64,000 bases of DNA from a virus (IMGVR_UViG_3300047409_000468:14962-78961), one strand, 5' to 3'; shown: positions 20,107 through 45,396, counted from the stretch's first letter. Notes: generated by a model from the letters alone, not told the origin. Translations and numbers: made by a program.

Positions 20107-22752
20107 TTAGAACGGCGTGCCGTCTGCCCTGACAATTTCTAATTCAACAACGGTAGCTTGGCCTCCCTTGCCTACCTTGACACCATACGTATGCGACACG
20201 TAACGAAATTTAGTGCCACGCGCCGTTATTACTTCAGCTTCGTCCCGCATGGATTCAGATTCAGTGCTCCTGCGGCTAACGAACGCTCCCTTGGCACCCT
20301 TGGGCACGCGCACCCTGAACAAAATCTGCTCGCTAGTGATTGATGATGTACCGGCAAAACTCTTTGACACTACCGGATTAAATGACAGCGAAGCATAACC
20401 CATATCAGTAAAATCCGGTGGCGGCGGTATGTCGTTCTTACCGCCATGGCCCTGTATGCCACGCCACATGATAAGGTCGTCTTGCACCGTTTCCTGTAGC
20501 TTGTCCAACTCTGCCGCACGCTCCTTATAACTAGAACTAAGAGCACTGTGGCCACTCTCACGCAATGTTTTATTCAATTCACCATAGCCACTGCCTGTAT
20601 AGAAACCAACACCCGGCACACTTTTATTATTGAATTTCAAACCAGCCGCCTTGCGCGCGGCTTCCATCTCAGCCACTTGCTGCGAGTTCATATTCGAACC
20701 GCTAAGACTATTACCCCAGCCCGCTTGCGCAAGATCCTTAACCACCGGCACCTTGCCCCACTTGGGTTCATCATGCCATTGATTAAGCTTGGTTTCGCTG
20801 ACTTGCTCAAAATGAACTTTGTGTTTAGTCTTAAGCGTGGCCTGTTGTGCCGCCTGCTTGGCCGCCGCCGCCGCCATCATATCGTCCAACGTAACGACTT
20901 TGACGTGGCCTTGGTCAATCATCTGTTGTAGCGCGGCATGCTTCTCCGCCGAGCTGCCCGCCTGCGTGTTCATGTACGATGACATGGTCATCTGCTTGCT
21001 GGGCTTCTGGTGGAACGACTGGTACTTGACCCATACCATTTCATCAGGCGTAAGGGCAGAGCCCGCCGGAGCCGACGGCTTTGGATATGGGTTGGTCTGT
21101 GAGAGCAGCACCAAATTGTCGCCGGTCTGTATCTTGGCAACATCGTACGCTTGCTGCGGCTGCCCGGCAGGAGCCTTGGGCGCGGGCGGTGCGGGCGGCA
21201 CCGGCCCTTCCACCTTCATGTAGCCCGAGTCTAAATCTTGCTGTAGCGCCTTGATTTTTTCTTTCTCACTAAGGACTGATGTGGCCTTGTACTGTTTGAC
21301 CGTAGTCTTCGCGCCAAACGAATTGGTCAGCACCACATCATCAGCCAGTGTCTCAGCCACAGGCTTGATATGCGTCTGGGCAGATGCCGACTGCGCTGAT
21401 ACCGTCTGCACCGTGGCAGCCTTGGTAACAGACCATTTACCACTAGCCAGATTTTTATTGACAGAGGCTTCAAATGCCTTATCGGTAACCGCCGCATCCT
21501 TAAGTCCTTTAACATCTATCTTTGCACCCGTTACGGAGGATATAACCACATCATCCGGATGCAAGTTCTCTATGGTATGCGCAGGCGCGGCCTTCGATAC
21601 GACCTTAACGTTCCCATTGTCCAGCAAACTCTGCAATTTGGTATGGAATTCTGCATCAGTCATATCTGGCAGATTTAAACTACTTTTCCACTTCTGCTTA
21701 TATTCAGCGACAGTATACTTGTTCCCCAGATATGTCTCAACAACATCGTTGGGTTGCAGGTCTGCCGCCTTGAGCGTAGTCGTCGGTTCCGGCGCGGGCG
21801 CGGCAGGCTTTGGCGCGGCGGCAACCATCTTCGGCGTGGTCAAACCCAGCTTCGCGGCAGTCGCCTCAAACGTGTCGTGGTTCGCGCTGCCGGGGGAGAA
21901 TGGGTTGCTGGTGACGACACCCAGCTTCTTGTCATCCATCTTCTGGTGCGCGGCCAAGTCACCGGGGCTCAACAGCCCGCTCTTCATGTCCTCCAAATCA
22001 TTGGGATGGTGGACCGAAATGTACCCTTTCTTCAGGTCATGCAGGATATGCTCGCTTGCCTTGCCCTTGTCGCCAATAGCGGCATGGAACTCGGCCACCG
22101 TCATACCGTCCTTGTATTTAGCGAAATCCGCCGCTGCCTTGCTCCCCGCCTTCTTCGGGTTGGATACCGCGTGCAACGTGATTATGTCTTCGCCTTTGAC
22201 CCCCTTGGTCTTGCTGGTTATGACAAGGTCGCTAAAGCTTGGCTCCGTCTTCGTTGGCGCTGGGGTGGCTGGCGTCGGGCTGGGGGAGGGTTGTGGTGCC
22301 GGGGCTGGTGCGGGTGCCGGCTGGGGCGGCGCGGGCGCAGGCGGGGCTGGCTGCACGCCCGGCTTGGGCACGGCCAACTGTTGTGGGCTGTGTATGGTGA
22401 TGTAGCCCTTTTTCGAATCGTAGGCGATATGCTCCGCTGCCTTGGGGCCGACCGCGTTCTTAAACTCGGCCACAGTCATGTTGTCTTGGTATTTGGCGAA
22501 GTCTGTTGCAGCCGCGCTGCCATCCTTTTTGGGATTGGCCGTGACGTGCAGCTTTATGACATCATCACCCTTGACGCCACTGGTCTTAGGCGTGCCAAAC
22601 GGCTCCGCCTTGAACTCCTCACTACCCGGCTTGAACTTGAACCGCCCGCCGGGGTCACGCGCATGCTTCGCCTCGTCCCACTTGATCTTGGCAAACGCCG
22701 CGCCCTTGGATATCTTACCCTTGTGGTGCTTGTGCGCGTGCAGCGCCATCAC
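20107..22752 (-). CDS. Multidomain ADP-ribosyltransferase (VIP2/T4 Alt-like) with shared leader and NPK repeats
   Basis: C-term FYTGSGY.ELN..LR...MWRG...DMGYASLS...LFRVRVPKG.KG...EAEVI..RGTKF (R-S-E motif); two NPK domains and degenerate repeats. Confidence 0.82.
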   Translation of the reverse strand: MMALHAHKHHKGKISKGAAFAKIKWDEAKHARDPGGRFKFKPGSEEFKAEPFGTPKTSGVKGDDVIKLHVTANPKKDGSAAATDFAKYQDNMTVAEFKNAVGPKAAEHIAYDSKKGYITIHSPQQLAVPKPGVQPAPPAPAPPQPAPAPAPAPQPSPSPTPATPAPTKTEPSFSDLVITSKTKGVKGEDIITLHAVSNPKKAGSKAAADFAKYKDGMTVAEFHAAIGDKGKASEHILHDLKKGYISVHHPNDLEDMKSGLLSPGDLAAHQKMDDKKLGVVTSNPFSPGSANHDTFEATAAKLGLTTPKMVAAAPKPAAPAPEPTTTLKAADLQPNDVVETYLGNKYTVAEYKQKWKSSLNLPDMTDAEFHTKLQSLLDNGNVKVVSKAAPAHTIENLHPDDVVISSVTGAKIDVKGLKDAAVTDKAFEASVNKNLASGKWSVTKAATVQTVSAQSASAQTHIKPVAETLADDVVLTNSFGAKTTVKQYKATSVLSEKEKIKALQQDLDSGYMKVEGPVPPAPPAPKAPAGQPQQAYDVAKIQTGDNLVLLSQTNPYPKPSAPAGSALTPDEMVWVKYQSFHQKPSKQMTMSSYMNTQAGSSAEKHAALQQMIDQGHVKVVTLDDMMAAAAAKQAAQQATLKTKHKVHFEQVSETKLNQWHDEPKWGKVPVVKDLAQAGWGNSLSGSNMNSQQVAEMEAARKAAGLKFNNKSVPGVGFYTGSGYGELNKTLRESGHSALSSSYKERAAELDKLQETVQDDLIMWRGIQGHGGKNDIPPPPDFTDMGYASLSFNPVVSKSFAGTSSITSEQILFRVRVPKGAKGAFVSRRSTESESMRDEAEVITARGTKFRYVSHTYGVKVGKGGQATVVELEIVRADGTPF

Positions 22753-23882
22753 TAAACTCCGGGTTCAAGGATCTTCACCGGCACGCGAAAACCACTGGCC
22801 AAACCAACGAAGATACGCGACTGCCCAGCCATGAGCCGCAACTTGCCGTTCTTGCGCAATACGATAGGCGGCGTGGTCACACCAGTGCGCATGCGCTCTC
22901 TAATACCCTCGGGGTCACGCTTACGCTGCTTCAGACCCGGAGCTACATCATTGAACGTAGGCAATCGCTTGGTATTGACACTGGTATAACCCAGAGTATC
23001 GTACTCACTGTCGTTCAAATACGTCAGCGGTGCCGCCTTGTACAGCTTGTTGAAATGCTCCTGATTCTGGATGCCCGGTGCCCAGCCCTTGCCACCGTAC
23101 TGAATGTATTCCTTCTCATATTCCCACTGCAAGCCCTTGTCACCCTCATCGGCCATCTTGTCAGGCGTCAAAGGCACCAGTTCATCGGCCTTGTACCGAT
23201 GGTCATTGGGCATGAGCGGCGGCACGGCAGACGGCACCTTGCCGACCGTGCCCGGTGCGGGGATTTCAGTGTGTGCTTCCGTAGGAGGTATCGTGTCCAT
23301 TCCCTTTGATACAGCAACGGGCGCAGATGCGATAGGGGGTGGCTCGGACTTTATTGCCGCTAACCGCCCGGTAGCGCCAACCGGGTGAATATCTGCCACA
23401 TGCGAGACGGTTCCGGGGGAGCCCGCCAGCTTCTGGTAGGTAGGCTCGTCGTGTATGGTGATGTAGCCTTTCTTACGGTCCCATGCGAGGTCCTCAGCGG
23501 TGCCCCCGGCGGCGCGGAACTCGCCTGTCGTCATGCCATCCTTGTAGTTGGCAAAGCGGTCGGCCGCAGCACTGCCAGCCTTCTTCGGGTTGGCATCTAC
23601 ATGCAGCTTGATACGGTCGGCCCCCGTGACGCCCGTGGTCTTGGCGGCGGCTTGCCATGCGGCCTTGTCGGCGGCTCCCGTAGCTCCAGCTGCGGGCGAT
23701 GCAGCCGCCGCCTTTCCCGTGGTGTTAGAGGACGAAGGAGCATCGTTCCCCGCCCCCGGCTTATCAGCAAACTTGCCAGCTATGTCGCGCTTGTGCTTGG
23801 CTTCCTCAAAATGAATCTTGGCAAGCGACGCCCCCGGCGAAAGCTTGACACCAGATTTTTTGTGGATGTGTAGACGGGCCAT
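22752..23882 (-). CDS. Protein with shared leader, NPK domain and C-terminal ParB/sulfiredoxin-like domain
   Basis: FEEAKHKRDIAGKF leader; NPKKAGS..RF..YKDGMT domain; C-term PPIVLRKNGKLRLMAGQSR....VPVKI. Confidence 0.65.
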   Translation of the reverse strand: MARLHIHKKSGVKLSPGASLAKIHFEEAKHKRDIAGKFADKPGAGNDAPSSSNTTGKAAAASPAAGATGAADKAAWQAAAKTTGVTGADRIKLHVDANPKKAGSAAADRFANYKDGMTTGEFRAAGGTAEDLAWDRKKGYITIHDEPTYQKLAGSPGTVSHVADIHPVGATGRLAAIKSEPPPIASAPVAVSKGMDTIPPTEAHTEIPAPGTVGKVPSAVPPLMPNDHRYKADELVPLTPDKMADEGDKGLQWEYEKEYIQYGGKGWAPGIQNQEHFNKLYKAAPLTYLNDSEYDTLGYTSVNTKRLPTFNDVAPGLKQRKRDPEGIRERMRTGVTTPPIVLRKNGKLRLMAGQSRIFVGLASGFRVPVKILEPGV

Positions 23883-23904
23883 TACAGTGCAGTCATCTCT
23901 CTGG

Positions 23905-24930
23905 TCACCCGTACGCTTTCGTCCACGTCCCGGCTTTGTTGACCCAGACTTCCGTCGGCGTCTTCCACGTCCCGGCGTTTTTGACGGACGGGGTGGGCTG
24001 CTTCCACGTACCGGCGTCCTTCACCCACATGGCGTTTATGAGGGTCACCGTAGGCGTGTAAGTGATGATAATGAGCCCCTTGCCGCCCTTGTTGATAGCG
24101 GCAGCGAGTGTACCGCCAGCGCCACCACCATAATCAGCACCAGCACCACCAGAACCTGAATTGACAGCGCCCATGCCACCGCCGCCGCCACCTGTCGCAG
24201 CACCGACAACACTCGGCGTCGTACCGTTTGGCGCGTGAGTCGATGTCCACATGGTGGTGCCGTTCGCGGGAGTGAACCCTGCGCCAGTGCCACCATCACC
24301 GCCATTGCCGCCGCCTGTGGTGCCGACGGCACCAGGACTTGATGTACTGTCAGCATTGCGACCGGGATTACCGGCTGTGGTCAGGCCAGCGCCGGACCCG
24401 CCGCTGCCACCGTAGCTTGGAGCGACTGTGGTCGTGTCGCCGTACCCACCAATGCCGCCTGCGCCACCCGGTCCAGCTGCACCACCTCCTGCACCACTTG
24501 TGCCGGGAGCAGCACCGGGACCATTACCTCCCTTGCCACCACTAAATTTTACTGTGCCGATACCGTTGGCAAGAAGACCACCATTGGCACCAAGCCGACT
24601 GCCAGCATTTGGAGTTGTACCACCTTCAGCGCCGCAAGTTGACGTAGCTAACGAGGTGCCACCGATCCACGATGCTTGTGTGCTGCCAGCCGCTGCCGCA
24701 GTATTGCTACCAGCACCGATTGCGCAGTTGAGAACCTGCGAAGGTGACCACGTTGTTATGTTGCTGACGGAGGAATAAGCGCCGCCACCACCGCCGCCCA
24801 GACCAGTCGTGGTAACAGCAGCACCACCACCGCCGCCGCCGATGCACTCGATCTTGTTGACGTTCGACCAGTCGGACGGAACAGTGAATGTCGTCGTCCC
24901 GCTCTGCAGGAAGATGACCTTGTCAACCAT
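23905..24930 (-). CDS. Glycine-rich virion fibre/adhesin protein
   Basis: FTVPS.W....IECIGGGGGG...GGKGLIIITY glycine-rich domain; C-term WVK.AG.WK repeats. Confidence 0.7.
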   Translation of the reverse strand: MVDKVIFLQSGTTTFTVPSDWSNVNKIECIGGGGGGAAVTTTGLGGGGGGAYSSVSNITTWSPSQVLNCAIGAGSNTAAAAGSTQASWIGGTSLATSTCGAEGGTTPNAGSRLGANGGLLANGIGTVKFSGGKGGNGPGAAPGTSGAGGGAAGPGGAGGIGGYGDTTTVAPSYGGSGGSGAGLTTAGNPGRNADSTSSPGAVGTTGGGNGGDGGTGAGFTPANGTTMWTSTHAPNGTTPSVVGAATGGGGGGMGAVNSGSGGAGADYGGGAGGTLAAAINKGGKGLIIITYTPTVTLINAMWVKDAGTWKQPTPSVKNAGTWKTPTEVWVNKAGTWTKAYG

Positions 24931-27617
24931 CAGACCTTGAACCAGATGTCGCCATCGACGCCGCCGGATGGCGCGGAGGTCGAGACGGTCACGTCACGGC
25001 CGATGACCGTGCCGGCCTTCTGCCAACTTTTGTCGCCACGCCAGTACTGCGCGGTGGTACCGGCGGCGATGATTGGCTCGCCAGCTACCGCATAAGGCCC
25101 GACCGTCACACTGTTGATCCGGGCGTAAAGTCCTGCCGTTGCTGTCCAGATGTCGCCGTTAACCGGGGAAGTCGGGGCCACGCCGTGCGGGATGTTGAAA
25201 CCAGACGTCCCTGCCGTCGATGCCGGGAGTACCAACGGCCCGCTCATCGTGTCGCCAAACTTATCCACGTAGTTGGCGTCGGCAGTCGCCGGGGTCAAAT
25301 AACCCTGCGCCTTCACGAAAGCAGTCGTGGCAATCTTCGTAGAATTATCGGCAGTGGCTGGCGTCGGTGCCGTTGGCGTGCCGGTCAAAGCCGGGGAGGC
25401 AATCGGCGCGTACCCCTGTGCTTTCACAAAGGCAGTCGTCGCCACGTTTGTGCTGTTGTCGGCAATTGGCGGCGTAACCGATGTCGCGCTGATCGCCATG
25501 TCAAACGGTGCGTTAATGGCAACACTGGAACCACCAATAACGAGCGGCTGATACGACCCGACCCCGGTGACATCGACGCCCTCAAGGGAGCTGAAAGTCG
25601 GATTGAAGCCAAGCCGGATAGCCTTGGTTATTCCAGCGACGAGTAAGTTAAAGCCACCATCCGTCCCCGGTTTGATGGCCAATATGCCAGTCATCGTGTC
25701 GCCGGCCTTGTTGACTTTGTTGCCGAGCAACGTGTCTAGGGCCGCCTTGGTGTAGCCGATCACCCACGCCAACCCACTACGCACGTAGGCATTGGCGTCG
25801 TTTGGCGCATCAACAATGCCGGATGGCGGCAGTGCCGCTAGAGCCGCAGTCACAAACGCGGTCGTTGCGATGCTAGTATCGTTATCGCCAGCCGTAGGCG
25901 TCGGTGCTGTCGGGTTGCCGGTGAATACCGGATCGGCCAGCTTGGCATAACCCTGCACCTTGACGAAAGCCGTCGTGGCAACGTTGGTCGAGTTGTCGCT
26001 AACACCGGGCGTCGCCGTTGTCAGGCCAACAGGCGCGGCAACAACGCCAGTAAAGCGGTTGATTGTAAAGGCCGCACCAATCAGGTTCCCGGCGTCGCCG
26101 AAACGGTTGATGGCAAAATCGGCACCGACATTACCGCCGGGCTCGCTGCTGGCTGCTGACTGGATCTCCCAACGCGGCGAGGTGCCGGTCCTAAACCGTA
26201 TGCCGCCAGCGTTGCCGGCGACCTTGTTGAGGAACAGCGTCGGCGTCGCCTTGTCGATGGTCAGGTCACCAGTCATCGTATCACCGGCGAGGGATACCTT
26301 GGTGGCCATGTCGTCGGTGAAATCGTCCCATACGCCCGATTTGCGAACGTAGGGCTTGCCGTCTATCGGCGCTTCGCCGATGCCACCGCCAACCGGTATC
26401 TTGGAATCAACGTATTGCTTGGTTGTCGCCTCCATCGGGTTGGTTGGATCGGCGGGCAACGTGACAGGCACGGCAGTCGTCACCGAGCCGGCAAAAATCG
26501 TTAGTTTATTAACACCGCCGACCGAGGCATTGATCTGCGATGAACCCCCATAGAAGCCAGTGCCAGCCGTGCCGAAATACAGCGTCGTGGCGGCGGCGCT
26601 GCCGCTGGTCGGCAACGTCAACGGCACGACAAACGTCCCCAACGCCGGCCCCAGCGCCATGACATCCGCGCCACTGACCGCCACCCTGACCAGCATCGGT
26701 GCGCCATAAAGGCCGGTCCCGGCAGTGCCAAAGTTCAGGCTGGTGGCGGCGGCCGTTCCATTGGGCACGACCAGCGGTCCGGTCATGGTGTCGCCGGCCT
26801 TCAGCACCCTGAGACCAAGCAACGTGTCTATCCCTGCCTTGGTATAGCCAATCACCCAAGCAAGTGCACTGCGCACGTAGGCATTAGCGTCGTTCGGTGC
26901 TTCCGCAATGCCCGATGGCGGCAGGGTCTGCCATGTCTTGTCGCCACGCCAGAACTGACTGGTCGTACCGCCAGTAATCGTTGGCTCCTTGGCCGCCAAA
27001 TCAGGGCTTAAGTCAGCCCAAGCCAGTGACTTGCGCACGTATGGCTTGCTATCGTTCGGTGCATCCGCCAACTGCGCCACGACAGCCCACGCCGCGCTCT
27101 TGCGTGCGTATTGCTGACCATCGAGCGGCGCTTCCGGCACAGGGCCAATCGGCCCTTGCGGCCCGGTTGCGCCCTGCGGCCCGGCATCCCCCTGTGGCCC
27201 CTGAGCTCCAGTATTACCAACATCACCCTTGACGCCCTGTGGTCCTTGCGGTCCAGGTACGCCGGGCGGGCCATTCGGCCCCGAAATATCACCGCAGTCC
27301 ACCCATGCGGTACCCGACCAGACCCACATGTGGCTCGTGTCATCTGCCACATAGGCATCGTTCAGGGTCGCACTCGCCGGCAGCGCACTGCTCGTGGCCA
27401 CGTGACCCTTCATGTTGAACCCTTGCCCAATCGGCCCCTGCGGCCCTACCGGACCGATAGGTCCAGTAAGGCCGGGAGGGCCTGCGGGGCCGCCGACATC
27501 GCCAATCTCGATAACCAGCGGGGGCGGCAACACGACATCAATCGCCGGAATCAGGTCCGGCAGGGTTACGTCTATGTTTAAATCCCCGGAAGCCTCGATG
27601 ACGACTATCTGGTTCAT
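24930..27617 (-). CDS. Collagen-like fibre protein
   Basis: Gly-X-Y repeats, multiple EAP.DG..Y.RK..W, AGDTMTG and DN.T..ATTAFV fibre repeats. Confidence 0.82.
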   Translation of the reverse strand: MNQIVVIEASGDLNIDVTLPDLIPAIDVVLPPPLVIEIGDVGGPAGPPGLTGPIGPVGPQGPIGQGFNMKGHVATSSALPASATLNDAYVADDTSHMWVWSGTAWVDCGDISGPNGPPGVPGPQGPQGVKGDVGNTGAQGPQGDAGPQGATGPQGPIGPVPEAPLDGQQYARKSAAWAVVAQLADAPNDSKPYVRKSLAWADLSPDLAAKEPTITGGTTSQFWRGDKTWQTLPPSGIAEAPNDANAYVRSALAWVIGYTKAGIDTLLGLRVLKAGDTMTGPLVVPNGTAAATSLNFGTAGTGLYGAPMLVRVAVSGADVMALGPALGTFVVPLTLPTSGSAAATTLYFGTAGTGFYGGSSQINASVGGVNKLTIFAGSVTTAVPVTLPADPTNPMEATTKQYVDSKIPVGGGIGEAPIDGKPYVRKSGVWDDFTDDMATKVSLAGDTMTGDLTIDKATPTLFLNKVAGNAGGIRFRTGTSPRWEIQSAASSEPGGNVGADFAINRFGDAGNLIGAAFTINRFTGVVAAPVGLTTATPGVSDNSTNVATTAFVKVQGYAKLADPVFTGNPTAPTPTAGDNDTSIATTAFVTAALAALPPSGIVDAPNDANAYVRSGLAWVIGYTKAALDTLLGNKVNKAGDTMTGILAIKPGTDGGFNLLVAGITKAIRLGFNPTFSSLEGVDVTGVGSYQPLVIGGSSVAINAPFDMAISATSVTPPIADNSTNVATTAFVKAQGYAPIASPALTGTPTAPTPATADNSTKIATTAFVKAQGYLTPATADANYVDKFGDTMSGPLVLPASTAGTSGFNIPHGVAPTSPVNGDIWTATAGLYARINSVTVGPYAVAGEPIIAAGTTAQYWRGDKSWQKAGTVIGRDVTVSTSAPSGGVDGDIWFKV

Positions 27618-34077: not shown

Positions 34078-34083
34078 TTGTCC

Positions 34084-34152: not shown

Positions 34153-35076
34153 ATGAACACGAACTCGACTCCCAAGATCCGCGTGCTGCGGCCCACTAAT
34201 CCAAAGAAGCCCGGCACCAAGGCATGGCATCGCTTCAACCTGTACAAGGATGGTATGACCACGAACGAAGCTCTGCGTGCCGGCTTGACCCGCGAAGATC
34301 TGCGCTATGACATCGAGCACGGCTTTATCGAAATCGTCACGCACGACAACAGCGCGCCCACCGGCAACAGCAACCGCCACGCCGCTTTGGGCCGCATCCG
34401 CGCTCTGCTCAACAAGACCGTGGAGAACGGCTGCACCGAGGAGGAAGCCTTTGCCGCCGCCGCCAAGGCCGGCGAACTGATGGACCGCTACGGCATCGAA
34501 TCCAGCGAAATGGAAATCCGCGAGGAAGTGTGCACCGTCGGCGTGCATGGTGCCGAGCGAAGCAAGGCCCACGAAAGCCGCTGGGTGGCGGTTGCCATCG
34601 CCCGATATTGCGACTGCCGTGTGTGGCACGTGACCGGGACCGGCCAGATACGCTTCTTCGGCTTGCCGGCCGACGTTGAAGTTGCGACCTACCTGATGCG
34701 CGTGGTGCAGGGCGCGATGGACCGTGGCTACCGGGAATTCCGCAAGTCCCCCGGTTACCTCGGCCTTTCCGGGGACCGCAACACGTTCATGGACGCCATG
34801 GCCAACCGTGTGAGCGCCCGCTTGCTAGAGATGCACAAGGCCCGGCACACCGAGACGATGGTCACCACCACGGGCACCAGCCTCGTACTGGTGAAGACCG
34901 CCGTGGTGACCGAGCAATGGGAAAAGACCGGCATGCGCCTGCGCAAGGGCGGCACCCAGCGTGTGAAGATGAGCGACAGCCACGCCGCGCGCAGTGCCGG
35001 CATGGCCGCAGGCGACCGAGTACATCTTGGGGCTGGCCTTAGCGATCGAAGCGTCAAGCTTCGCATCGCTAAGTGA
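34153..35076 (+). CDS. NPK-domain + DUF2786-family protein
   Basis: N-term NPKKPGTKAWHRFNLYKDGMT...; RIRALL.KT..NG.TEEEA..A..KA.ELM..YGI (DUF2786-like), F.G...DVEVA.YL. Confidence 0.8.
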   Translation: MNTNSTPKIRVLRPTNPKKPGTKAWHRFNLYKDGMTTNEALRAGLTREDLRYDIEHGFIEIVTHDNSAPTGNSNRHAALGRIRALLNKTVENGCTEEEAFAAAAKAGELMDRYGIESSEMEIREEVCTVGVHGAERSKAHESRWVAVAIARYCDCRVWHVTGTGQIRFFGLPADVEVATYLMRVVQGAMDRGYREFRKSPGYLGLSGDRNTFMDAMANRVSARLLEMHKARHTETMVTTTGTSLVLVKTAVVTEQWEKTGMRLRKGGTQRVKMSDSHAARSAGMAAGDRVHLGAGLSDRSVKLRIAK

Positions 35077-35533: not shown

Positions 35534-36007
35534 ATGATTGATGAACTATGCGCCAACGACCAACAGACCATTTGCCGCACGCTGCATCTGCCGCTGCCGA
35601 CGCCCGACGTGCCGCTGACCACCATCATCACACAGGCAAAGATGTGCGAGGCCGACGTGCTGGCCCGCCTGGAACAGAGCCGTGACCTGCGTGCCCACAT
35701 CACCGCGCATGCCATGCGGGGTCGCATCGTGCGGTGCCCGGCCGACCCGCAACTGCACCCGAAGCCGTGGCCCAAACCGAGCGCCAAGAGCGCCGTAGAG
35801 ACCCCGACAAGAGCCCGTGCGGCTACCGCCACACGAACTCTGGTGAGCTACATACCAAACCCCAAGAAGGCCGGCAGCGCCGCCCGCGCCCGCTACGCCC
35901 TGTACGAGAACGGGTTGACCGAGACCGAGTTGCTGGCCCGTGGCCTGCAACGCGCCGACCTGCGCTGGGACACCGAACACAAGCACCTCACCTGGAGGCT
36001 AGGATGA
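35534..36007 (+). CDS. Protein with C-terminal NPK domain
   Basis: PNPKKAGSAARARYALYENGLT..ELLARGL.RADLRWD. Confidence 0.75.
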   Translation: MIDELCANDQQTICRTLHLPLPTPDVPLTTIITQAKMCEADVLARLEQSRDLRAHITAHAMRGRIVRCPADPQLHPKPWPKPSAKSAVETPTRARAATATRTLVSYIPNPKKAGSAARARYALYENGLTETELLARGLQRADLRWDTEHKHLTWRLG

Positions 36008-37529: not shown

Positions 37530-39935
37530 ATGGCAACGAATCTTTACGCATTCCCGAACGGTAACCTCAGCGGGCTAGATGAAAACCCGCCGCTCGACAC
37601 GTTCCTCGCCGGCAAGACCGGCCCGGCGCTCATCCAGAACGCCAACCAGCAGGCGTTCGCCGGGCCGAACGGCACGCAGATCCGCTTCAACGGCGCTGGC
37701 TTCCAGTACGACCCTGCCGGCAACGGCATCGCCGGCACTCTGATCTCGGTGCAGATCGTCACGTTCGACGCTATCGGCAACCCGGTCACGCAGGAAATCA
37801 CCGTCGCGCCGTTCCCGGCGAACTCGTTCGCGCTGTTCTACGCGGCGTTGAACACCTCGCCGGCCGCCGCAGTGACGTTCCTGATGAACGGCAACGACAC
37901 CATCATCGGGTCGGCCACCAATGACCTGCTCGAGGGTCACAACGGAGCCGATAACATCAATGGTTTCGCTGGCAACGACCACATCATCGGCGGGCTCGGC
38001 ACCGACACCATCAATGGCGGGCTGGGCGTTGACGAATCGGACTACTCGGACAGCTACGGCCGCCCGGTCACCGAGGCCAACCATGGCATCATCGTCAGCG
38101 CCGCCACCAACACCGTGCTCAACTATGAGCCCGGCGTCCACGTCGAGACGGTCGTCAACGTCGAGAGCTACACCGGCACCCAGTTCACCGACACGTTCTT
38201 TGGCGACGGCGACAGCGAGACCTTCCGCGGCCTCGGTGGCAACGACATCATCAACGGCGGTACTGGCTCCGACACGGTCGCCTACGACCGCGACGCCAAG
38301 TTCGGCGGAACGGCCGGGGTGACGGTTAATCTCGCGACCGGCACGGCAACGGACGGCTTCGGTCAGACCGACACGCTGACCAGCATCGAGAACGCCATCG
38401 GCACGGCGGCCAACGACACCCTCATCGGCAACGGCGCGAGCAATGAACTGCGCGGCGGGGCTGGCGATGATTCGTTGACGGCGGGGACCGGCGGCTTCGA
38501 CCACATGTTCGGTGGCGACGGCAACGACACCTATCACGTCAGCAGCTTCTTCACGCAGATCGCTGACGAGATCGGGACCGGTGGCATCGACACCGTTGAA
38601 TCCGGTGACATTTCGATCGACCTGACCGACACGTTCCGCTATCGTGGCGACATCGAGAACATCACGCTTACCGGCGCGGCACCGCTGTTCGCCCGTGGTA
38701 ACGACCTTGACAACGTGATCGAAGGCAACCTTGCTGCCAACGTCCTAACCGGCAACGGCGGCGATGACACCATCAACGGCAATGGCGGCAACGACACGCT
38801 GAACGGCGACGGTGGCAACGACAAGCTGGACGGCGGGCTCGGCGACGACACGGTGAACGGCGGGCTCGGCAACGACCAACTGGTCGGCGGTGCCGGGGAC
38901 GACACGTTGCGCGGCGGCGAGGGCAACGACACCCTTGACGGCGGCATTGGCGGCAACCACCTCGACGGCGGGCTGGGCAACGACACCTATGTGCTCGGGG
39001 CCAAGGCCGACGGCGAGGACAGCATTGCCGACGCTGGTGGCAACGATACTGTCACCAGTTCTATCGACCGCAGTCTGGCGTTCTACACCGGGTTGATTGA
39101 GAACCTGACCCTTACCGGCGGCGCGCATGTCGGCACCGGCAACGGCGGCGACAACATCATCACCGGCAACGACCTCGGTGACACGCTGCTCGGGCTCGGC
39201 GGCAACGACACGCTGATCGGTGGGCTCGGCAACGACACCCTGCGTGGCGGTGACGGCGACGACACCCTGAACGCTGGTGCCGGCGACGACGTGCTCGACG
39301 GCGGCAATGGCAACGACAGCATGAACGGCGGACTGGGCAACGACACCTATCTGGTGCTCGGTGACGACGACATCATCGACACCGGTGGCGTCGACACGGC
39401 CCGCTCGGCAGGCTCGCTCAACCTGCTGAACTATACCGGCGTGGAGAACGGCGTGTTGACGGGTGGCGGCAACGCTTCCCTGATCGGTACGAACGGAGCC
39501 AACGTGTTGACCGGCAACAACGGCAACAACGTGATCTCCGGGCTGGCCGGTTCCGACCGCATCGATGGCGGCTTCGGCAACGACCACATCAACGGCGGTG
39601 CCGGGCATGACGTGCTGCGTGGCGGTGGCGGCGAGGACTTCTTCCGCTTCGCCAACGGTGGCAGCGCCAACAGCGACGTCATCACCGACTTCAGTCATAC
39701 CGCCGACACCATCGAACTGAGCCGCCGGGTGTTCTCGGCCCTTGGCCCGACGGTTACCGCCAACGAGCTCAGGCTCGGCACCCATGCGCTGGACGGCAAC
39801 GACCACCTGATCTACGACCGGGCGCACGGTCTGCTGTCGTATGACTCGAACGGCAACCACGCTGGCGGCTCGTTCGTAATCGCGACGCTGACCAACCATC
39901 CGGTGTTGACGGCCAACGACTTCGTCATGGTCTAA
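37530..39935 (+). CDS. RTX / hemolysin-type Ca-binding repeat protein, probable type I secretion substrate
   Basis: 801 aa, many GGxGxDxLx nonapeptides, no Sec signal, serralysin-like C-terminus (DVITDF...DTIEL...LIYD...G.L.YD.NG...LTANDF). Confidence 0.92.
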
Positions 39936-39980
39936 AAGACTTGCCTGCCAACCCTTCGCCCATATAGACAGGCAAGGGAG

Positions 39981-40016
39981 TGGAGCGCCAAGCGATTGGC
40001 GCTCCATTTTCTTTTT
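39981..40016 (+). terminator. Rho-independent terminator after the RTX gene
   Basis: TGGAGCGCCAA-gcga-TTGGCGCTCCA followed by TTTTCTTTTT. Confidence 0.8.
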
Positions 40017-40050
40017 GCCGATTTGCCGGGGGGATAGTAAAACCACGGCT

Positions 40051-40530
40051 ATGAAACAGACACCACTACGTGCCATGCACCAAGAAGTTTGCGCGATGAG
40101 CCAGTGGCTCATGCGGCAACGCAACCATGTGCAGCCGTTCTGTGTCCTCGAGATCGGGGACACCTACGCGGCCCTCCCCATGCCATGGCAAACCCCAGAC
40201 GAAAAATACGCCTACATCCGGGCACTGCGTGACAAGCTGCGCGCCATGCACTTCGACTATTACACGATAGTTGTCGAGGCGTGGGTGGCCACGGTGAACA
40301 TGAAGGTCTCCCCGGAACTGGCCAACGTGCCGCCCAGCGAGCGCAGTGACCGCGAGGATGTGCTGCTCGTCATGTCCAGGCACCGTTCCGGGGAAACCTA
40401 CGACACGAAGTTCCGTGTGGAATACACGCGGGGCGGCAAAGTCAAGCTCGGCCCGGCTGAGCACCTGGAAGGTGACGCCACCGCTGGCTTGATGGCCAAC
40501 CTTTTTGAAGACGACCCCACTTACCACTAG
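40051..40530 (+). CDS. Hypothetical protein
   Basis: EAW....PSE..DR.DV motif; upstream TTGCCG-N17-TAAAAC. Confidence 0.7.
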   Translation: MKQTPLRAMHQEVCAMSQWLMRQRNHVQPFCVLEIGDTYAALPMPWQTPDEKYAYIRALRDKLRAMHFDYYTIVVEAWVATVNMKVSPELANVPPSERSDREDVLLVMSRHRSGETYDTKFRVEYTRGGKVKLGPAEHLEGDATAGLMANLFEDDPTYH

Positions 40531-40542
40531 AAAGGATAAGGA

Positions 40543-40770
40543 ATGGACTACCTAGCAGAACTGAAGCGCCTGCTACCGCTGAACAACCGCCAGCAAGATG
40601 GCGTAGATTCCACGAAGCGCAAGCTGGCCATTGAAGCGATTGCCGGGCCGGCGGATGGCCGGCAGACCGACCGGTTGGTGACCGTTGTAATCGCCATGTT
40701 GGAGGCCCGCAGCCCCAATACGACAAAAAGTAAGCTATGGCCGGTTGGCGCGGCGGAGGACCCCGACTAA
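40543..40770 (+). CDS. Hypothetical protein
   Basis: AAGGA RBS, 75 aa. Confidence 0.5.
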   Translation: MDYLAELKRLLPLNNRQQDGVDSTKRKLAIEAIAGPADGRQTDRLVTVVIAMLEARSPNTTKSKLWPVGAAEDPD

Positions 40771-40900
40771 AAAGGCTAGCCTGGAGCCGCCTGACCACCC
40801 TACAGTCGGGCGGCACCCCTACCCTAGTACCTACTGAGCCCCCCCACCCAAAACGCGCCAGCGGGCTCCGTATTTAATGAACTATTTATCACTTTAGGGC

Positions 40901-40929
40901 TTTACACAGCGAAAAAGATAGCCTAGATA
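40901..40929 (+). promoter_or_regulatory. Early promoter (probably leaderless transcript)
   Basis: TTTACA-N17-TAGATA with ATG 7 nt downstream. Confidence 0.72.
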
Positions 40930-40935
40930 GGGTCC

Positions 40936-41109
40936 ATGACAAACGCTCAAGCCATCGCCACCCTGAAGTCCGGCCAGACCGTTAAATTTGGCTGGGAGCA
41001 CAACAGCACCGAGATGAAGGCGATCTTTGCCCGCATCAAGGCCGAAGTGCCGACCGCCTGGATCACGCGCAGCCCGTCAACCAACAACTGGACCATTTAC
41101 CCGAAATGA
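40936..41109 (+). CDS. Small hypothetical protein (57 aa)
   Basis: Own translation MTNAQAIATLKSGQTVKFGWEH...; phage-like codon usage. Confidence 0.6.
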   Translation: MTNAQAIATLKSGQTVKFGWEHNSTEMKAIFARIKAEVPTAWITRSPSTNNWTIYPK

Positions 41110-41282
41110 CCATCACCGTCACTCTGCAAGTCAGCCGCGATGGCATACACTTCACACCGCGTGCTTTCCCGACCCCATATGCGCGATACGGTGCCGCCGA
41201 GGAGCGGGCCAAGCTGGATGCCTGGACACAAGGCTACGTGATCCTGCCTAATAGCGCCACCTACGAAAAGATTTTCGCTTAG
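41106..41282 (+). CDS. Small hypothetical protein (58 aa)
   Basis: ATGA-coupled; MTITVTLQVSRDGIHF... Confidence 0.5.
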   Translation: MTITVTLQVSRDGIHFTPRAFPTPYARYGAAEERAKLDAWTQGYVILPNSATYEKIFA

Positions 41283-41296
41283 GCTCCACTTTTCGC

Positions 41297-41325
41297 TTTA
41301 CACCAATCCATGATTGGGCTAGAAC
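41297..41325 (+). promoter_or_regulatory. Early promoter
   Basis: TTTACA-N17-TAGAAC. Confidence 0.7.
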
Positions 41326-41370
41326 TCATTCATGGATTGGGCAATCAGGCCCCTGCCTCTGGAGGTTTCC

Positions 41371-41499
41371 ATGTTCTTCGTCGCTCTCGCCTACGCCGCC
41401 GAAATCGCCCGCGTCGCCGTCGAGTATCCCGACTACCAGTTGCCCGCGCACAAGCGCATCGCCGCGTACAATTTGTACGCGCGTGGCCGCACCAACTAA
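41371..41499 (+). CDS. Small hypothetical protein (42 aa)
   Basis: GGAGG RBS; own promoter and terminator. Confidence 0.55.
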   Translation: MFFVALAYAAEIARVAVEYPDYQLPAHKRIAAYNLYARGRTN

Positions 41500-41524
41500 G
41501 CCGGCTAACTACCCGCGCCCACCC

Positions 41525-41556
41525 AAGCCGCCCCTAACCGGGCGGCTTTTTCATTT
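41525..41556 (+). terminator. Rho-independent terminator
   Basis: AAGCCGCCC-ctaacc-GGGCGGCTT followed by a T tract. Confidence 0.78.
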
Positions 41557-41562
41557 TTGTGC

Positions 41563-41590
41563 TTTACACCAAGTGATTTTCGTGTATGAT
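41563..41590 (+). promoter_or_regulatory. Early promoter
   Basis: TTTACA-N16-TATGAT. Confidence 0.6.
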
Positions 41591-41627
41591 AATGCGTATG
41601 GGGCATGCCGCCCCGGAGAACCACAGC

Positions 41628-41861
41628 ATGAAATTTGTACGTACAGCCGAACGGCTGCATATAAGTGCCGATACCTACGGTGTGCCGGCCAGCGGCTACT
41701 ACAACGTGGAAGGCCACGTTATCGCCGATATGTTTGGCCCATACCCCACCATTGTCGGGTACGTTATCCGCAGGGCAAACGGCACGCTAACCCGCGCCTA
41801 CCTGCACTACCACCCCGATAAAAGCTGGGGCCACAAGCCTAAGCTTACCGTAGTTTCCTAA
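41628..41861 (+). CDS. Hypothetical protein
   Basis: GGAGAACCACAGC leader before ATG. Confidence 0.6.
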   Translation: MKFVRTAERLHISADTYGVPASGYYNVEGHVIADMFGPYPTIVGYVIRRANGTLTRAYLHYHPDKSWGHKPKLTVVS

Positions 41862-41908
41862 ACCAACCAAGGGGGCCGCAAGGCCCCCAATTCCACGGAG
41901 AACCACAC

Positions 41909-42109
41909 ATGAAAACCGTATACCACGTAGAAACGCATGCCAACGGCTACCGCGCCTATAAGAAATTGGATTTCGATACCGAAGCCGAAGCCGTGGCCAA
42001 GCTTAATGTAGAAGCTGCGGCGGGCCGCTTTGGTGGCGTCTGGCGCGACCGGGACAATGGCACCCGGTTGCTGCACCACACCGACCCCACCATACAAACA
42101 CAATGGTGA
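41909..42109 (+). CDS. Hypothetical protein
   Basis: Near-identical GGAGAACCACAC leader. Confidence 0.6.
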   Translation: MKTVYHVETHANGYRAYKKLDFDTEAEAVAKLNVEAAAGRFGGVWRDRDNGTRLLHHTDPTIQTQW

Positions 42110-42112
42110 AAC

Positions 42113-42137
42113 AAAGGGGGCCGCAAGGCCCCCTTTT
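42113..42137. terminator. Bidirectional terminator between convergent modules
   Basis: AAA-GGGGGCC-gcaa-GGCCCCC-TTTT; the same hairpin occurs at about 41871-41888. Confidence 0.8.
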
Positions 42138-42574
42138 CATTTGCCCGTAATCGTTGCCCGGATCGCCCGCCAATCCCAATCAGCCGGCGCACCATACCAG
42201 CGGCCCAGCACCGGCACATTATCCAGCCCGTTCTCTGCCAGCGCCCGCGCATGGCTGCCCGCCACGGCCCACAGGGAGTCCCCCTGCTTCTTGGCGCTGC
42301 CGGCCCCGCCCGCCCGCACGAGGAACAGGCAATTCACACCAGCGGCTGTGTGGTGGCCTATCCAGGCCAGTTGGTGCGGGCGCACGGTGACCGCCCAGCC
42401 GTTGGTCGCCTTATGTTCAATCCAGCCACAGGTCTGCGTGGGCGTGTGCGCCCAGAAGCTGTCAGGCACCCCGGCATGGGTCGCACCGGTCTCTACCGGA
42501 GTCCATAGCCAGCCGTCTGTCTTGCGCAAGTAGGTCTGCACCACCCGGCGCAGGCCGCCGTCAGCGATCGTTAT
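42137..42574 (-). CDS. PD-(D/E)xK nuclease (VRR-NUC / Holliday junction resolvase-like)
   Basis: ET.....GVPD......GWIE.K......VRP.Q..W; start uncertain (ATA at 42574 or GTG at 42544/42547). Confidence 0.78.
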   Translation of the reverse strand: MTIADGGLRRVVQTYLRKTDGWLWTPVETGATHAGVPDSFWAHTPTQTCGWIEHKATNGWAVTVRPHQLAWIGHHTAAGVNCLFLVRAGGAGSAKKQGDSLWAVAGSHARALAENGLDNVPVLGRWYGAPADWDWRAIRATITGK

Positions 42575-42852
42575 GACCTTGCCTCCAACTCAGCGATGCG
42601 CGCCCTGAGCCAGTCTGTTTCTATGGCTGTTGCATTGATGAATGCCTGAAGCCTCGCGCTGTTGTCGTGTTCGATCTGCGCCTGCTCCTGCCAGATGGCA
42701 GCCTCCCGCTGCGCCTCGGCAAGCGCTGCAGCGGCGTCCTGGTAGCGGACCCATGGCCCGCTACTGTCGATGACGAAGTAAGGATCACCATCATTCAAAT
42801 CGTCTGGCTTGAAGCGCACCAATTCAGCCACCATCTCCTCTGGGATGCTCAT
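42571..42852 (-). CDS. Hypothetical protein
   Basis: Coupled ORF; G.WV.Y.D motif and coiled coil. Confidence 0.6.
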   Translation of the reverse strand: MSIPEEMVAELVRFKPDDLNDGDPYFVIDSSGPWVRYQDAAAALAEAQREAAIWQEQAQIEHDNSARLQAFINATAIETDWLRARIAELEARS

Positions 42853-43127
42853 GTCTGGCCTTCAAGGAGAGCGCGGGCGCGGATGCCGGAAGGCTCAACG
42901 ATGTGTGAGAACAGCCCGTCCACTTGCTCGCGGATGACCTCGACCCACTTCCCGTCGATTTCGACGCGGACGATAACGCTGTCGCCAATTCGCAGGAGGT
43001 GGATGCCGGTAACGGCTACCGGGTTGTTAAATGTTCGGCCCGAAGCTTTCCTCAACGCATTTTCGAGGCCTTGAAGTTCGCGCCACACTGTCGTCCTCAT
43101 GGCTGCCTTATTGGCTTCGCTCGACAT
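42849..43127 (-). CDS. Hypothetical protein
   Basis: AAGGAG RBS, coupled. Confidence 0.55.
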   Translation of the reverse strand: MSSEANKAAMRTTVWRELQGLENALRKASGRTFNNPVAVTGIHLLRIGDSVIVRVEIDGKWVEVIREQVDGLFSHIVEPSGIRARALLEGQT

Positions 43128-43172
43128 CCTCTACTCCTTTCCAGACCGTATGGCCGCAGCGATGCGACGTGG

Positions 43173-43484
43173 TCATCGTCCCTTCACCAGATTCTCAAAG
43201 GTCGCCTGTCCCTCTTCACTCTTTGCCCACGCCTCGCTCTCAGCCAGATCGGCGTCGAACTCACCGTTGTGGTGTCTCTCCAGGATGCGCGTCAGGGTTG
43301 ATATGGCCTGTTTGGTAAGGTCCCTCTTCAGCAGTGTCATCAGCGCAAGGTCCAGCGCCATGCTGGGGAGGTCGTGTTGGGAAAGAAAGTCGTGGAACTC
43401 GTCATGCTCGGCGCGCACGGCTAGCTCTTCAAAGCCTGCGGCTCGCAATGTATCGGCGAGTTTCTGGCTGGTTTTAGCGGTCAT
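43173..43484 (-). CDS. Hypothetical protein
   Basis: LA..L..AG......RA....HDF.S....P...L...G.FDA...ES.AW.KS.EG. Confidence 0.7.
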   Translation of the reverse strand: MTAKTSQKLADTLRAAGFEELAVRAEHDEFHDFLSQHDLPSMALDLALMTLLKRDLTKQAISTLTRILERHHNGEFDADLAESEAWAKSEEGQATFENLVKGR

Positions 43485-43487
43485 CTG

Positions 43488-43703
43488 TCAGTATCCTATC
43501 GGTTGCCTGCCGGGCTCGGTCAGGTTCTGTAATTTCCAATCACGCTTCTTGCAGTAATCGGAGACCCGATTGTACTGCCAGCCCAGCATGAAGTGTAACA
43601 TCGGGTTGGACCAGTTGACCATGCCGTCTACGCCGATACCCAATGCGACACCAGCACTGGGTATCGCCCCGACGATGCAGTAAAGGTGTTCGTATCGCCT
43701 CAT
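43488..43703 (-). CDS. Hypothetical protein
   Basis: Coupled ORF. Confidence 0.55.
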   Translation of the reverse strand: MRRYEHLYCIVGAIPSAGVALGIGVDGMVNWSNPMLHFMLGWQYNRVSDYCKKRDWKLQNLTEPGRQPIGY

Positions 43704-43942
43704 CGGATCCGTGCCTGTTCCAGCATCTCGACGAAGTTAGCCGCGACAAGATACTTGGCTCGCGCCTTGGCTTCGGGATCCCAGTAATTGGGGCCGGGGC
43801 TGGCGTGGTTGATACAAGCGTCGGCGACCGCCTGCTGCTTGGCGGTAAGCTCCCTCTGCCACGTAGCGTAGAGTCGGCTGACCGCCATGCGCTCCTCGTC
43901 AAGGTCAATCGTAACCAAATCGGTCATAATTCGCTGGCCCAC
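43700..43942 (-). CDS. Hypothetical protein
   Basis: Coupled ORF. Confidence 0.5.
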   Translation of the reverse strand: MGQRIMTDLVTIDLDEERMAVSRLYATWQRELTAKQQAVADACINHASPGPNYWDPEAKARAKYLVAANFVEMLEQARIR

Positions 43943-44667
43943 TTGTTCAGGTAATAGTCCACCGTGTAACGGAGATCAACGTCGTTCTGATACTGGTCGT
44001 TGGCCCGCACCATCCATTGCAGATACCCGATCGGCACCTCGGCCCATGGCTTGCCCTCGTGCTTGCCGAACCGACATATCGGTTGCAATATGGGCGTCGT
44101 ACTGAGCCGCAGGAGCTCCGTGGGGTCGGCCAGCGCCAGCATGCGCACCAGCACCGCCGCCGTGCAGGCGGCATCGTACAGCGCCCTGTGCGGGTCCAGG
44201 CCAGCTATCAAATCGGCAGGCGGCTCCACCCCGAGGTAATAGCGCAGCGTCTGGTTACTGAACTTGGGGCAATCCGGCCACAGGTGCTTGGCGCACTGAT
44301 AGGTGTCGATCGCCGCCAGCGATAGCTCCGGCAGGAACGCCATGTCGAACGGCGCGTTGTGCGCCGCGTACAGCATCTGGCCCGGTCGCTCCATTGCCTT
44401 CATAGTGCGGATCATCAACGCATGCGGCAGGCAGTCCGGAGCCCCCGGTAGACAGGACGCCGGGTTGATATGGTGCGTTCCCCGCGCTACCGGGGAGAAG
44501 GGCGCGTTGGTTTCCACGTACGACCACGAGCCGGTAAGGAAATCCCATACGTCGCCAGTGCGCCGGAGTTCCACCAGCCCGATTTCGCACACTTCCGCGC
44601 CGGCAGCGGGATCGAGGTCAGTGGTTTCGGTATCCAAAACTACAATCTTCGATATGTTATCGTTCAT
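43924..44667 (-). CDS. DEDDh 3'-5' exonuclease (ExoX-like)
   Basis: LDTETT, AHNAPFD, HRALYDA and C-term FGKH.G..W.EVP..YL.W. Confidence 0.9.
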   Translation of the reverse strand: MNDNISKIVVLDTETTDLDPAAGAEVCEIGLVELRRTGDVWDFLTGSWSYVETNAPFSPVARGTHHINPASCLPGAPDCLPHALMIRTMKAMERPGQMLYAAHNAPFDMAFLPELSLAAIDTYQCAKHLWPDCPKFSNQTLRYYLGVEPPADLIAGLDPHRALYDAACTAAVLVRMLALADPTELLRLSTTPILQPICRFGKHEGKPWAEVPIGYLQWMVRANDQYQNDVDLRYTVDYYLNKWASEL

Positions 44668-44839
44668 TAATTTGCTCAAGCTTTTCAAGGAGTTGCACTG
44701 CTCGTGTCAACCGCTGGCGATAGCTTACGCTCCTGCGCGGGCTGAAGCTATGCCGGAGGTACAGATCACTGATGATCTCACCCTGCACCCGTGCAATCAT
44801 GGTGTAGACCTCATTCAAAGTTTTTTCACTTGCCTCCAT
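44657..44839 (-). CDS. Hypothetical protein (60 aa)
   Basis: ORF overlapping the exonuclease start. Confidence 0.4.
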   Translation of the reverse strand: MEASEKTLNEVYTMIARVQGEIISDLYLRHSFSPRRSVSYRQRLTRAVQLLEKLEQINER

Positions 44840-44847
44840 TTTATCAC

Positions 44848-44876
44848 TTTACAGATAGCGAAAAGGATACTAGATT
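44848..44876 (+). promoter_or_regulatory. Early promoter
   Basis: TTTACA-N17-TAGATT. Confidence 0.72.
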
Positions 44877-44922
44877 CACGTCATCATCAACCGGGCCGAG
44901 GCCCACCTCTCAGGAGCATACC

Positions 44923-45396
44923 ATGTCTACCACTACCTACACCAACACGCAGCGCTCCAAGGCGAAGCACACCATTAAGAAGATTTTGGCCATGACCGAG
45001 GCCGCTGGCTGCACCCCGGCTCAGGCCGCTACCGCGCAGACAAGGGCGCAGGTGTGGATGGACAAGTACGGGTTCACCCCGGCCGACTTTGCCGCCAAGC
45101 CGGACGGCTTCACCATTTTCGCGGACGCGATGGCCAAGGCCGGCAACAAGCCGCAGCCCAAGGCCAAGCCGGCCAAGCCGGCGGCCAAGGGCGCGCGCCG
45201 TGGCCCGGCCCCGGAGTACGCGGACACGCAGGTCATCACCCTGCTCGTGGCGAACCCCAAGCGTCCCGGCAGCAAGGCGTTCGCTCGGTACGCCAACTAC
45301 AAGGACGGTATGACCGTGGCGCAGGCGCTCGCCGCCGGCCTCACCCGCGAGGATTTCCGCTGGGACGTGGAGAAGGGCCACATTGCAATCGCGTAA
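44923..45396 (+). CDS. DUF2786-like + NPK-domain protein
   Basis: AGGAG RBS; IKKILAMTEAAGCT..QA..A.......DKYG then ANPKRPGSKAFARYANYKDGMT...DFRWDVEKGHI. Confidence 0.8.
   Translation: MSTTTYTNTQRSKAKHTIKKILAMTEAAGCTPAQAATAQTRAQVWMDKYGFTPADFAAKPDGFTIFADAMAKAGNKPQPKAKPAKPAAKGARRGPAPEYADTQVITLLVANPKRPGSKAFARYANYKDGMTVAQALAAGLTREDFRWDVEKGHIAIA

Follow-up and report, generated by a model that had tools for sequence, protein, structure and literature searches.

NPK, a small winged-helix-like phage domain linked to the PF18723 family and a candidate DNA-binding handle

Why would a phage attach one and the same small domain both to proteins encoded among its head genes and to proteins that are probably made early in infection? 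This question is raised by a stretch of viral DNA of 64,000 nucleotides (the window; bases 14962-78961 of the 78,961-base-pair [bp] IMG/VR virus record IMGVR_UViG_3300047409_000468), in which an initial annotation had recognized an unnamed module of ~55 amino acids (aa), here called NPK, six times in five proteins. Coordinates below are those of the window unless marked as genome. On the basis of profile searches and gene neighborhoods, NPK appears to be a large, mostly viral family that is almost confined to phages with a PF18723 gene. We hold it about evenly balanced that the domain is a DNA-binding handle that began as an accessory to the PF18723 step before being multiplied in this lineage.

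The six copies were recovered at the places given for them, with per-domain hidden Markov model (HMM) E values (1e-21 to 2e-29) far beyond chance. Two are in an ADP-ribosyltransferase (ART) encoded on the minus strand (copy 1, aa 63-120, 22393..22566, i-Evalue 5e-24; copy 2, aa 188-245, 22018..22191, i-Evalue 3.5e-25), and one is in a 376-aa protein, also on the minus strand (aa 88-145, 23448..23621, i-Evalue 1.9e-29). The remaining three are on the plus strand, at the N terminus of a 307-aa protein (34168..34341, 3.7e-28) and at the C termini of a 157-aa protein (35828..36001, 1.3e-21) and of a DUF2786-NPK protein (45223..45393, 1.6e-28). This count is valid for the window but not for the genome, in which a seventh copy outside the window (genome 559-738, minus strand), lying in a 236-aa protein (genome 481-1191, minus strand), brings the total to seven in six proteins. 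With one copy as the query, exactly seven places were retrieved from the entire record (E values of 7e-36 to 2e-7), and a six-frame regular-expression scan of the record returned the same seven and no further match. Eight columns (N, P, K, G, A, Y, T, and D) are invariant in the alignment of the six copies, and across 230 domain instances of the wider family N10, P11, K12, G15, Y25, T30, and D47 are near invariant.

The late copies, i.e., the two of the ART and that of the 376-aa protein, share 64 to 66% mutual identity, and the plus-strand copies share 44 to 53% with each other and 24 to 39% with the first ART copy. The presence of two such identity groups, late and early, in a single genome would be in keeping with a decoy or antidote arrangement, in which the early NPK proteins compete with virion-borne NPK enzymes for a shared target. 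We nevertheless regard such an arrangement as very improbable, given that there is no toxin-antitoxin-like pairing or adjacency, that the early carriers have conserved domains of their own (DUF2786 and DUF7168), and that a single NPK copy per phage is the majority pattern.

The common fold that the initial annotation presupposed is supported by structure prediction. All seven copies align into one profile, and the AlphaFold2 model, computed once for this seven-copy profile as a whole, is a single confident fold with a predicted local distance difference test (pLDDT) score of 94. It begins with a strand (residues 3 to 6) that leads into a long loop bearing the NPK(R/K)xGS motif, followed by a helix (18 to 23), a short bridge at the GMT motif (30 and 31), two further helices (32 to 37 and 42 to 50), and a closing strand (54 to 56), giving the order beta-alpha-(beta)-alpha-alpha-beta. 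The predicted domain thus has both the three-helix bundle and the beta-sheet wing by which winged helices are recognized. In an exhaustive VIA-align search, the top neighbors were all winged-helix domains, namely, those of GATOR1 Nprl, PriA, the RiPP recognition elements (RREs), the MetAP2 insert, MarR, Fur, and Z-alpha, with Z scores of 3.3 to 5.6 and root mean square deviations of 2.2 to 3.0 over 42 to 57 residues at 5 to 15% identity; the best scores were 5.6 (8fw5_C), 5.4 (PriA, 6dgd_A), and 5.3 (the McbB RRE). A Foldseek search of BFVD gave a single match, PhiJL001 Gp18 (TM score of 0.95), and a sequence profile search of the PDB with NPK returned only chance-level matches (DotG repeats and YcnI). 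The model therefore presents NPK as resembling winged helices, with no solved family to which it can be shown to be related.

How widespread is the domain? Among 1.84 billion cluster representatives, a profile search retrieved 4,766 proteins at E values of ≤1e-3 and 1,477 at ≤1e-10, and the nearest ESM Atlas clusters are 78 to 100% viral "hypothetical proteins." No well-characterized family matches it: in Pfam-A 2025, NCBIfam 20, and PHROGs v4, no curated model covers NPK at E values of up to 1, whether the query is the domain by itself, one of its five carriers in the window, or any of 150 relatives. A tblastn search with a single domain found only PhiJL001 among phages and nothing among plasmids. 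A pattern-based scan of GTDB genomes yielded only two contigs of metagenome-assembled genomes, because the pattern was narrow; one of these genomes also has PF18723. NPK is C terminal in 112 of 195 family proteins. Among the best 150 of the 4,766 relatives, its partner domains are ART (10 proteins), NUDIX (3 proteins), and DUF2786 (2 proteins), as well as PHD fingers, a T4-endoV-type pyrimidine dimer glycosylase domain, and Rho_N.

The strongest clue to function comes from gene neighborhoods. PF18723 (Pfam "HMUDK_hel"), a thymidine hypermodification family, is the former clade 1 of the aGPT-Pplases, with PhiW-14 gp72, the C-terminal domain of SP10 gp186, and M6 gp55 as members (PMC5889632, PMC8989533). 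The proposed check for co-occurrence with hypermodification genes gave a clear outcome, in that NPK is nearly restricted to PF18723-carrying phages and adjoins that very gene. Two sets of viral records with an NPK match were assembled, the first consisting of 35 IMG/VR records with lengths of 22 kb or more and the second of 15 records fetched with a different seed alignment. PF18723 scores above its cutoff in 23 of the 35 first-set records (14 of the 15 with a completeness of 90% or more) and is present in 12 of the 15 second-set records (all 5 near-complete ones), i.e., in 35 of 50 NPK viral records and 19 of 20 near-complete ones when the sets are pooled. The background, a PF18723 homolog in 95 of 50,697 cultured phage records by tblastn (about 0.2%), is a single-sequence lower bound, and even a tenfold undercount would leave a more than thirtyfold enrichment.

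The gene order is equally constant. Every one of the 23 PF18723-positive records of the first set has an NPK copy on the strand of the PF18723 gene and upstream of it, 66 to 1,425 bp away in 19 of them and no more than 4.3 kb away in the rest, and 10 of the 12 positive records of the second set show this order as well; in the eleven single-copy genomes with PF18723, this upstream NPK is their only copy. The present phage conforms to the pattern: the gene for the seventh copy ends 48 bp upstream of the PF18723 gene on the same strand, as reconstructed across a 127-bp end repeat. The C-terminal part of that gene lies at 63439..63969 on the minus strand (PF18723 E value of 2.2e-12; 47 bits against a cutoff of 25), with the rest beyond the record junction. 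Among cultured phages, PhiJL001 has the same pair, its NPK protein gp18 directly preceding gp19, which matches PF18723 with an E value of 1.5e-45. Further, 18 of the 35 first-set records have no terminase related to that of this phage, and in the others its identity ranges from 39% to 81%; therefore, the pairing is not one clade's inheritance. Judged by gene content and order, the specific partner of NPK is PF18723. ADDT was considered as a partner and rejected, being present in only 3 of 26 NPK records. A P-loop 5-hydroxymethyldeoxyuridine kinase in or after the PF18723-adjacent NPK proteins was likewise rejected, as these proteins lack a Walker A motif and a kinase stands between the two genes in one locus only.

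The 127-bp "direct terminal repeat" of the record runs through the PF18723 gene (window 63439-63969 plus genome 1-432) and, since it cuts that gene, is not a physical end but an overlap left by the assembly of a circular or permuted genome.

Together with PF18723, the phage encodes other genes of a hypermodification pathway, clustered at 49992..55351 on the minus strand: a ThyA-like hydroxymethylase, a P-loop kinase, an ADDT-like transferase (24.6 bits, just under the cutoff), a radical SAM/SPASM protein, and an inositol-1-phosphate-synthase-like protein. The last of these matches PF01658 with an E value of 2e-36. The modification made by this cluster may be of a new kind. In other NPK phages, the gene between NPK and PF18723 often encodes a TET-associated glycosyltransferase (TAGT; PF20691, E value of 5e-20), which this phage lacks. 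The resulting three-gene cassette NPK-PF20691-PF18723 was seen in L016 (3371-4171), L023 (3378-4163), L055 (3068-3862), and 11 more loci, and gp22 of PhiJL001 is the same glycosyltransferase. The NPK-TAGT-PF18723 cassette suggests that many uncultured phages might have glycosylated 5-hydroxymethyluracil (hmU) in their DNA.

A second line of evidence comes from another kingdom. Three of the best NPK matches look eukaryotic, and one of them, P0017, contains two NPK domains and a 360-aa C-terminal domain with relatives in the pelagophyte algae Aureococcus anophagefferens and Chrysophaeum taylorii and in MMETSP transcripts (a family comprising P0205-P0220 and including JL720_5527 of A. anophagefferens and CTAYLR_006183 of C. 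taylorii). The algal domain matches PF18723 over almost the whole profile with E values of 2.5e-5, 6.2e-5, and 3.9e-3, just under the cutoff. An hhalign comparison of the two gives collinear motifs, including a Cys-Glu pair, LCE(W/F)xK(F/Y), at 28 to 51% probability, and an ESM Atlas lookup also points to the PF18723 family. One or two NPK domains, N or C terminal, are present in 8 of 17 members of the algal family, and other proteins join PHD fingers to two NPK domains. These fusions hint at a phage-like thymine modification in some marine algae. That NPK works with PF18723 is indicated twice and independently, by the gene neighborhood across phage lineages and by the domain fusions in another kingdom.

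The main rival to DNA binding, which we consider unlikely, is that NPK is a protein-protein docking module that binds the PF18723 protein or another shared hub, so that the enzymes fused to it are recruited to that hub and not to DNA. The strict co-occurrence and fixed gene order, often with overlapping stop and start codons suggestive of translational coupling (L044, L046, L049, and L073), would be expected of such a module, as would the algal fusions of NPK to PF18723-like domains. The acidic character of its conserved helix 3 and the peptide- or protein-binding winged helices among the closest folds (RRE domains and GATOR1) point the same way. Against docking, the head-operon effectors described below would meet no PF18723 protein at injection, the PHD finger, glycosylase, and Rho_N fusions of NPK have no PF18723 part, one complete NPK phage lacks PF18723, and the histone H1-like tails of many members favor contact with DNA.

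These tails are Lys/Ala/Pro/Glu-rich basic stretches that adjoin NPK in 48 of 195 family proteins. Such K/A/P-rich tails, found in 25% of the family and in the majority of the short proteins encoded next to PF18723, are at the same time an argument for another possibility, namely, that NPK is a DNA binder blind to both sequence and modification, a viral counterpart of linker histones that coats or compacts DNA of altered charge or shape without reading bases. The variety of modification chemistries among NPK phages would be accommodated by it. It leaves unexplained, however, both the fixed place directly upstream of PF18723 and the fusion to PF18723-like domains in algae, and most cultured hmU-modifying phages have no NPK at all; we think this possibility distinctly unlikely.

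Several observations also weigh against the reading that we prefer, of NPK as a DNA-binding handle of the PF18723 step. The structural matches are weak, with Z scores below 6 that are too low to tell kinship from a common arrangement, and Foldseek found nothing significant in the PDB (best E value of 0.9). The putative recognition helix (helix 3) bears the conserved acidic residues D43 and D47, an uncommon feature in a helix that reads DNA, and the mean net charge of the domain over the 230 instances, +2.4, is only mildly basic. Among eleven cultured PF18723 phages (M6, PaMx11, CN2, Pam3, RHph_I65, SH-Ab 15599, RSL1, PhiW-14, LuckyBarnes, Epa5, and PhiJL001), only PhiJL001 has NPK; with 10 of 11 lacking it, NPK is not needed for hypermodification as such. 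Conversely, the complete NPK phage G022 (IMG/VR, 110,994 bp) has neither PF18723 nor ADDT, the sole such complete record. Finally, the downstream chemistry differs among NPK phages, with TAGT in some and the inositol/ADDT cluster here, so that a conserved NPK is unlikely to read one and the same final modification in all of them; the variation points either to a common early state (hmU or phosphomethyl-U) or to a lack of any base specificity.

Of the proteins that carry NPK in this phage, the ART (20107..22752, minus strand; 881 aa) is composed of a leader, the two NPK domains, four small repeats, and a C-terminal R-S-ExE domain. The last is identified by a PF03496 match (E value of 1.1e-10; 41.7 bits against a cutoff of 23.4), and its translation shows the catalytic R, S-x-S, and E-x-E motifs as LIMWRG, YASLS, and DEAEV, which places it among the R-S-ExE ARTs. 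The adjacent 376-aa protein (22752..23882, minus strand) combines a leader and NPK with a C-terminal domain of uncertain, perhaps ParB- or Srx-like, type. The two genes sit between the portal/fiber genes and the capsid gene, and a megablast search of the region against cultured phages found no near-identical DNA.

Both proteins start with a common leader of ~45 aa (22618-22752 in the ART and 23748..23882 in the 376-aa protein, minus strand) with the motif K-L-S-x-GA...EAKHKRD..GKF..KPG. Within the genome, this motif is limited to these two genes, and it recurs in homologs of related phages, where the pattern ...S-x-GA...EAKH-x-RD-x-x-G-[KR]-F...KPG is kept on NUDIX, ART, and HExxH peptidase-like proteins. 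The leader is a candidate capsid-targeting signal. In these related phages, the same leader-plus-NPK stem bears a NUDIX, an ART, an HExxH peptidase-like, or an unassigned head, and the whole looks like a cassette of interchangeable effectors. By gene position and the precedent of T4 Alt, the ART and the 376-aa protein are probably packaged in the capsid and injected.

The label "ParB-like," which the initial annotation had given to the 22752..23882 product, was not confirmed, as a Pfam or PDB sequence match was found neither for the 376-aa protein (P0002) and its homolog P0164 nor for P0163 and P0079. The sole hint of ParB, for which a DGxHR-type motif would be expected, is in the homolog P0164, which has RDGNHR where P0002 has MAGQSR. 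A recent paper describes ParB-like proteins that activate phage thymine dioxygenases (PMC13229309).

The four degenerate repeats of ~50 aa that had been noted in the ART (aa 332-622; 20887..21759, minus strand) are real internal repeats by alignment, the others being 29 to 38% identical to the first one. Compared with the NPK profile by hhalign, they show no link (6% probability). An AlphaFold2 model of aa 255-622 built from 14 homologs (mean pLDDT of 84, with the small beta/alpha domains at ~90) renders them as four separate small beta-beta-alpha-alpha-beta domains, and in the fourth an NPYPKPS loop is kept together with the full NPK order beta-alpha-beta-alpha-alpha-beta. The repeats are plausibly eroded NPK copies that lack helix 1.

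The plus-strand carriers are smaller. The 307-aa protein (34153..35076) has the architecture NPK-DUF2786-DUF7168 (PF10979, 7e-13; PF23771, 1.9e-18; phrog_421, 3e-36). The gene at 44923..45396 encodes the DUF2786-NPK protein, recognized by its Pfam match (157-aa form on record), and that at 35534-36007 encodes a 157-aa protein that, like the 376-aa protein, has no family match outside its NPK part. Each of these early carriers had been proposed to sit behind its own promoter. A sigma-70 scan accepted one of the three sites, at 44848-44876 ahead of the gene at 44923-45396, whereas the other two are TTTACA-like by eye only.

Two neighboring genes stand out in their own right. Between the NPK genes of the plus-strand block, 37530-39935 encodes a protein of 801 aa in which the RTX calcium-binding repeat is matched ten times (PF00353, 4e-53), which is unusual cargo in a phage. 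In the head operon, just upstream of the ART and 376-aa pair, 24930-27617 encodes a protein of 895 aa that matches collagen repeats and the C terminus of fibritin.

The combined evidence can be accommodated by the following scheme for NPK as a DNA-binding handle. NPK would be a small autonomous winged-helix-like domain, most likely DNA binding, whose home context is a thymidine hypermodification cassette, with the gene for a short NPK protein just upstream of PF18723. There it probably brings the PF18723 enzyme to, or holds it on, phage DNA derived from hmU. In the present lineage, the domain would have been duplicated to seven copies and put to use as an all-purpose handle for adhering to the phage's own DNA. 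Its fusion partners would have been the two neighboring head-operon proteins with the common leader, i.e., the Alt-like arginine ADP-ribosyltransferase and the 376-aa protein, and three plus-strand, probably early, proteins, two of them with DUF2786. Two considerations favor DNA as the ligand, namely, the chromatin-type partners and histone H1-like tails of other family members and the occurrence of NPK on proteins that would act before any PF18723 protein is made. The idea in the initial annotation of a shared targeting module that reads modified DNA gains from the tie to PF18723 phages and the adjacency of the genes, while DNA binding, and specificity for modified DNA above all, is what we infer.

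A bolder version, which we consider doubtful, makes NPK a dedicated reader of an hmU-derived DNA state (e.g., phosphomethyl-U or its products) that couples PF18723-type writers to marked DNA as JBP1 does for base J, with the same pair, as PF18723-like plus NPK and PHD plus NPK proteins, at work in the nuclear chromatin of pelagophytes. In a more extreme variant, the invariant lysine of the NPK loop would itself be the nucleophile, and PF18723 would link it to DNA so that proteins are tethered covalently. Were the writer-reader pair real in Aureococcus-type chromatin, it would imply an undescribed eukaryotic thymine hypermodification.

Thymidine hypermodification has been worked out enzyme by enzyme, through a kinase, amino acid or diamine transferases, and radical SAM and pyridoxal phosphate enzymes, and to our knowledge the clade 1 aGPT-Pplases (PF18723) have no assigned role in it. 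In the literature that we consulted on the pathway, we found no mention of a domain such as NPK or of an accessory DNA-binding factor, and the PF18723 protein M6 gp55 was dispensable in vitro (PMC8989533). A family that marks PF18723 phages offers a handle on both the role of PF18723 and such accessory factors. It may also allow phages with hmU-derived DNA to be recognized simply from their genomes, might be turned into an affinity reagent for that DNA, and may explain how this phage lineage could keep injected effectors on its own genome. The gp18-gp19 pair of the cultured phage PhiJL001 makes the idea directly testable.

Among known systems, winged helix-turn-helix domains have in common with NPK a core of three helices against a small three-stranded sheet. 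NPK differs from them in that its first strand is N terminal and is followed by the long invariant NPK[RK]xGS loop, found in none of the listed relatives, in its acidic helix 3, and in the absence of sequence similarity, with Z scores too low for kinship. Linker histones H1 and H5 are winged-helix globular domains with Lys/Ala/Pro-rich tails, and many NPK proteins are similarly built from a small globular domain and KAPK/AKKA-type tails; however, GH5 is not among the structural matches, the tails occur in only about a quarter of NPK members, and the NPK family is viral and tied to a DNA modification gene. T4 Alt is a capsid-packaged ADP-ribosyltransferase, and polymorphic "polyvalent" phage effectors are known. 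The R-S-ExE ART of the head operon resembles them, as does the combination of a common leader with interchangeable C-terminal enzyme heads, whereas the constant leader-plus-NPK stem is not known to be a feature of Alt or MuF fusions, and packaging is drawn here from analogy. A functional analogy is with proteins whose DNA-binding part is specific for hmU-derived bases and is attached to, or encoded with, the modifying machinery. SPO1 TF1, an hmU-preferring HU homolog, is one such protein, and JBP1 is another. Structurally, both stand apart from NPK, TF1 having the HU fold and JBP1 a helical domain of 160 residues whose J-binding fold, different in size and secondary structure, is not among the NPK structural matches; base specificity, too, is in NPK only a conjecture. 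In JBP1, the J-DNA-binding domain joins the writer to a reader of an hmU-derived base in a single protein (PMC3141245), and the algal NPK-PF18723-like fusions would join writer and reader likewise.

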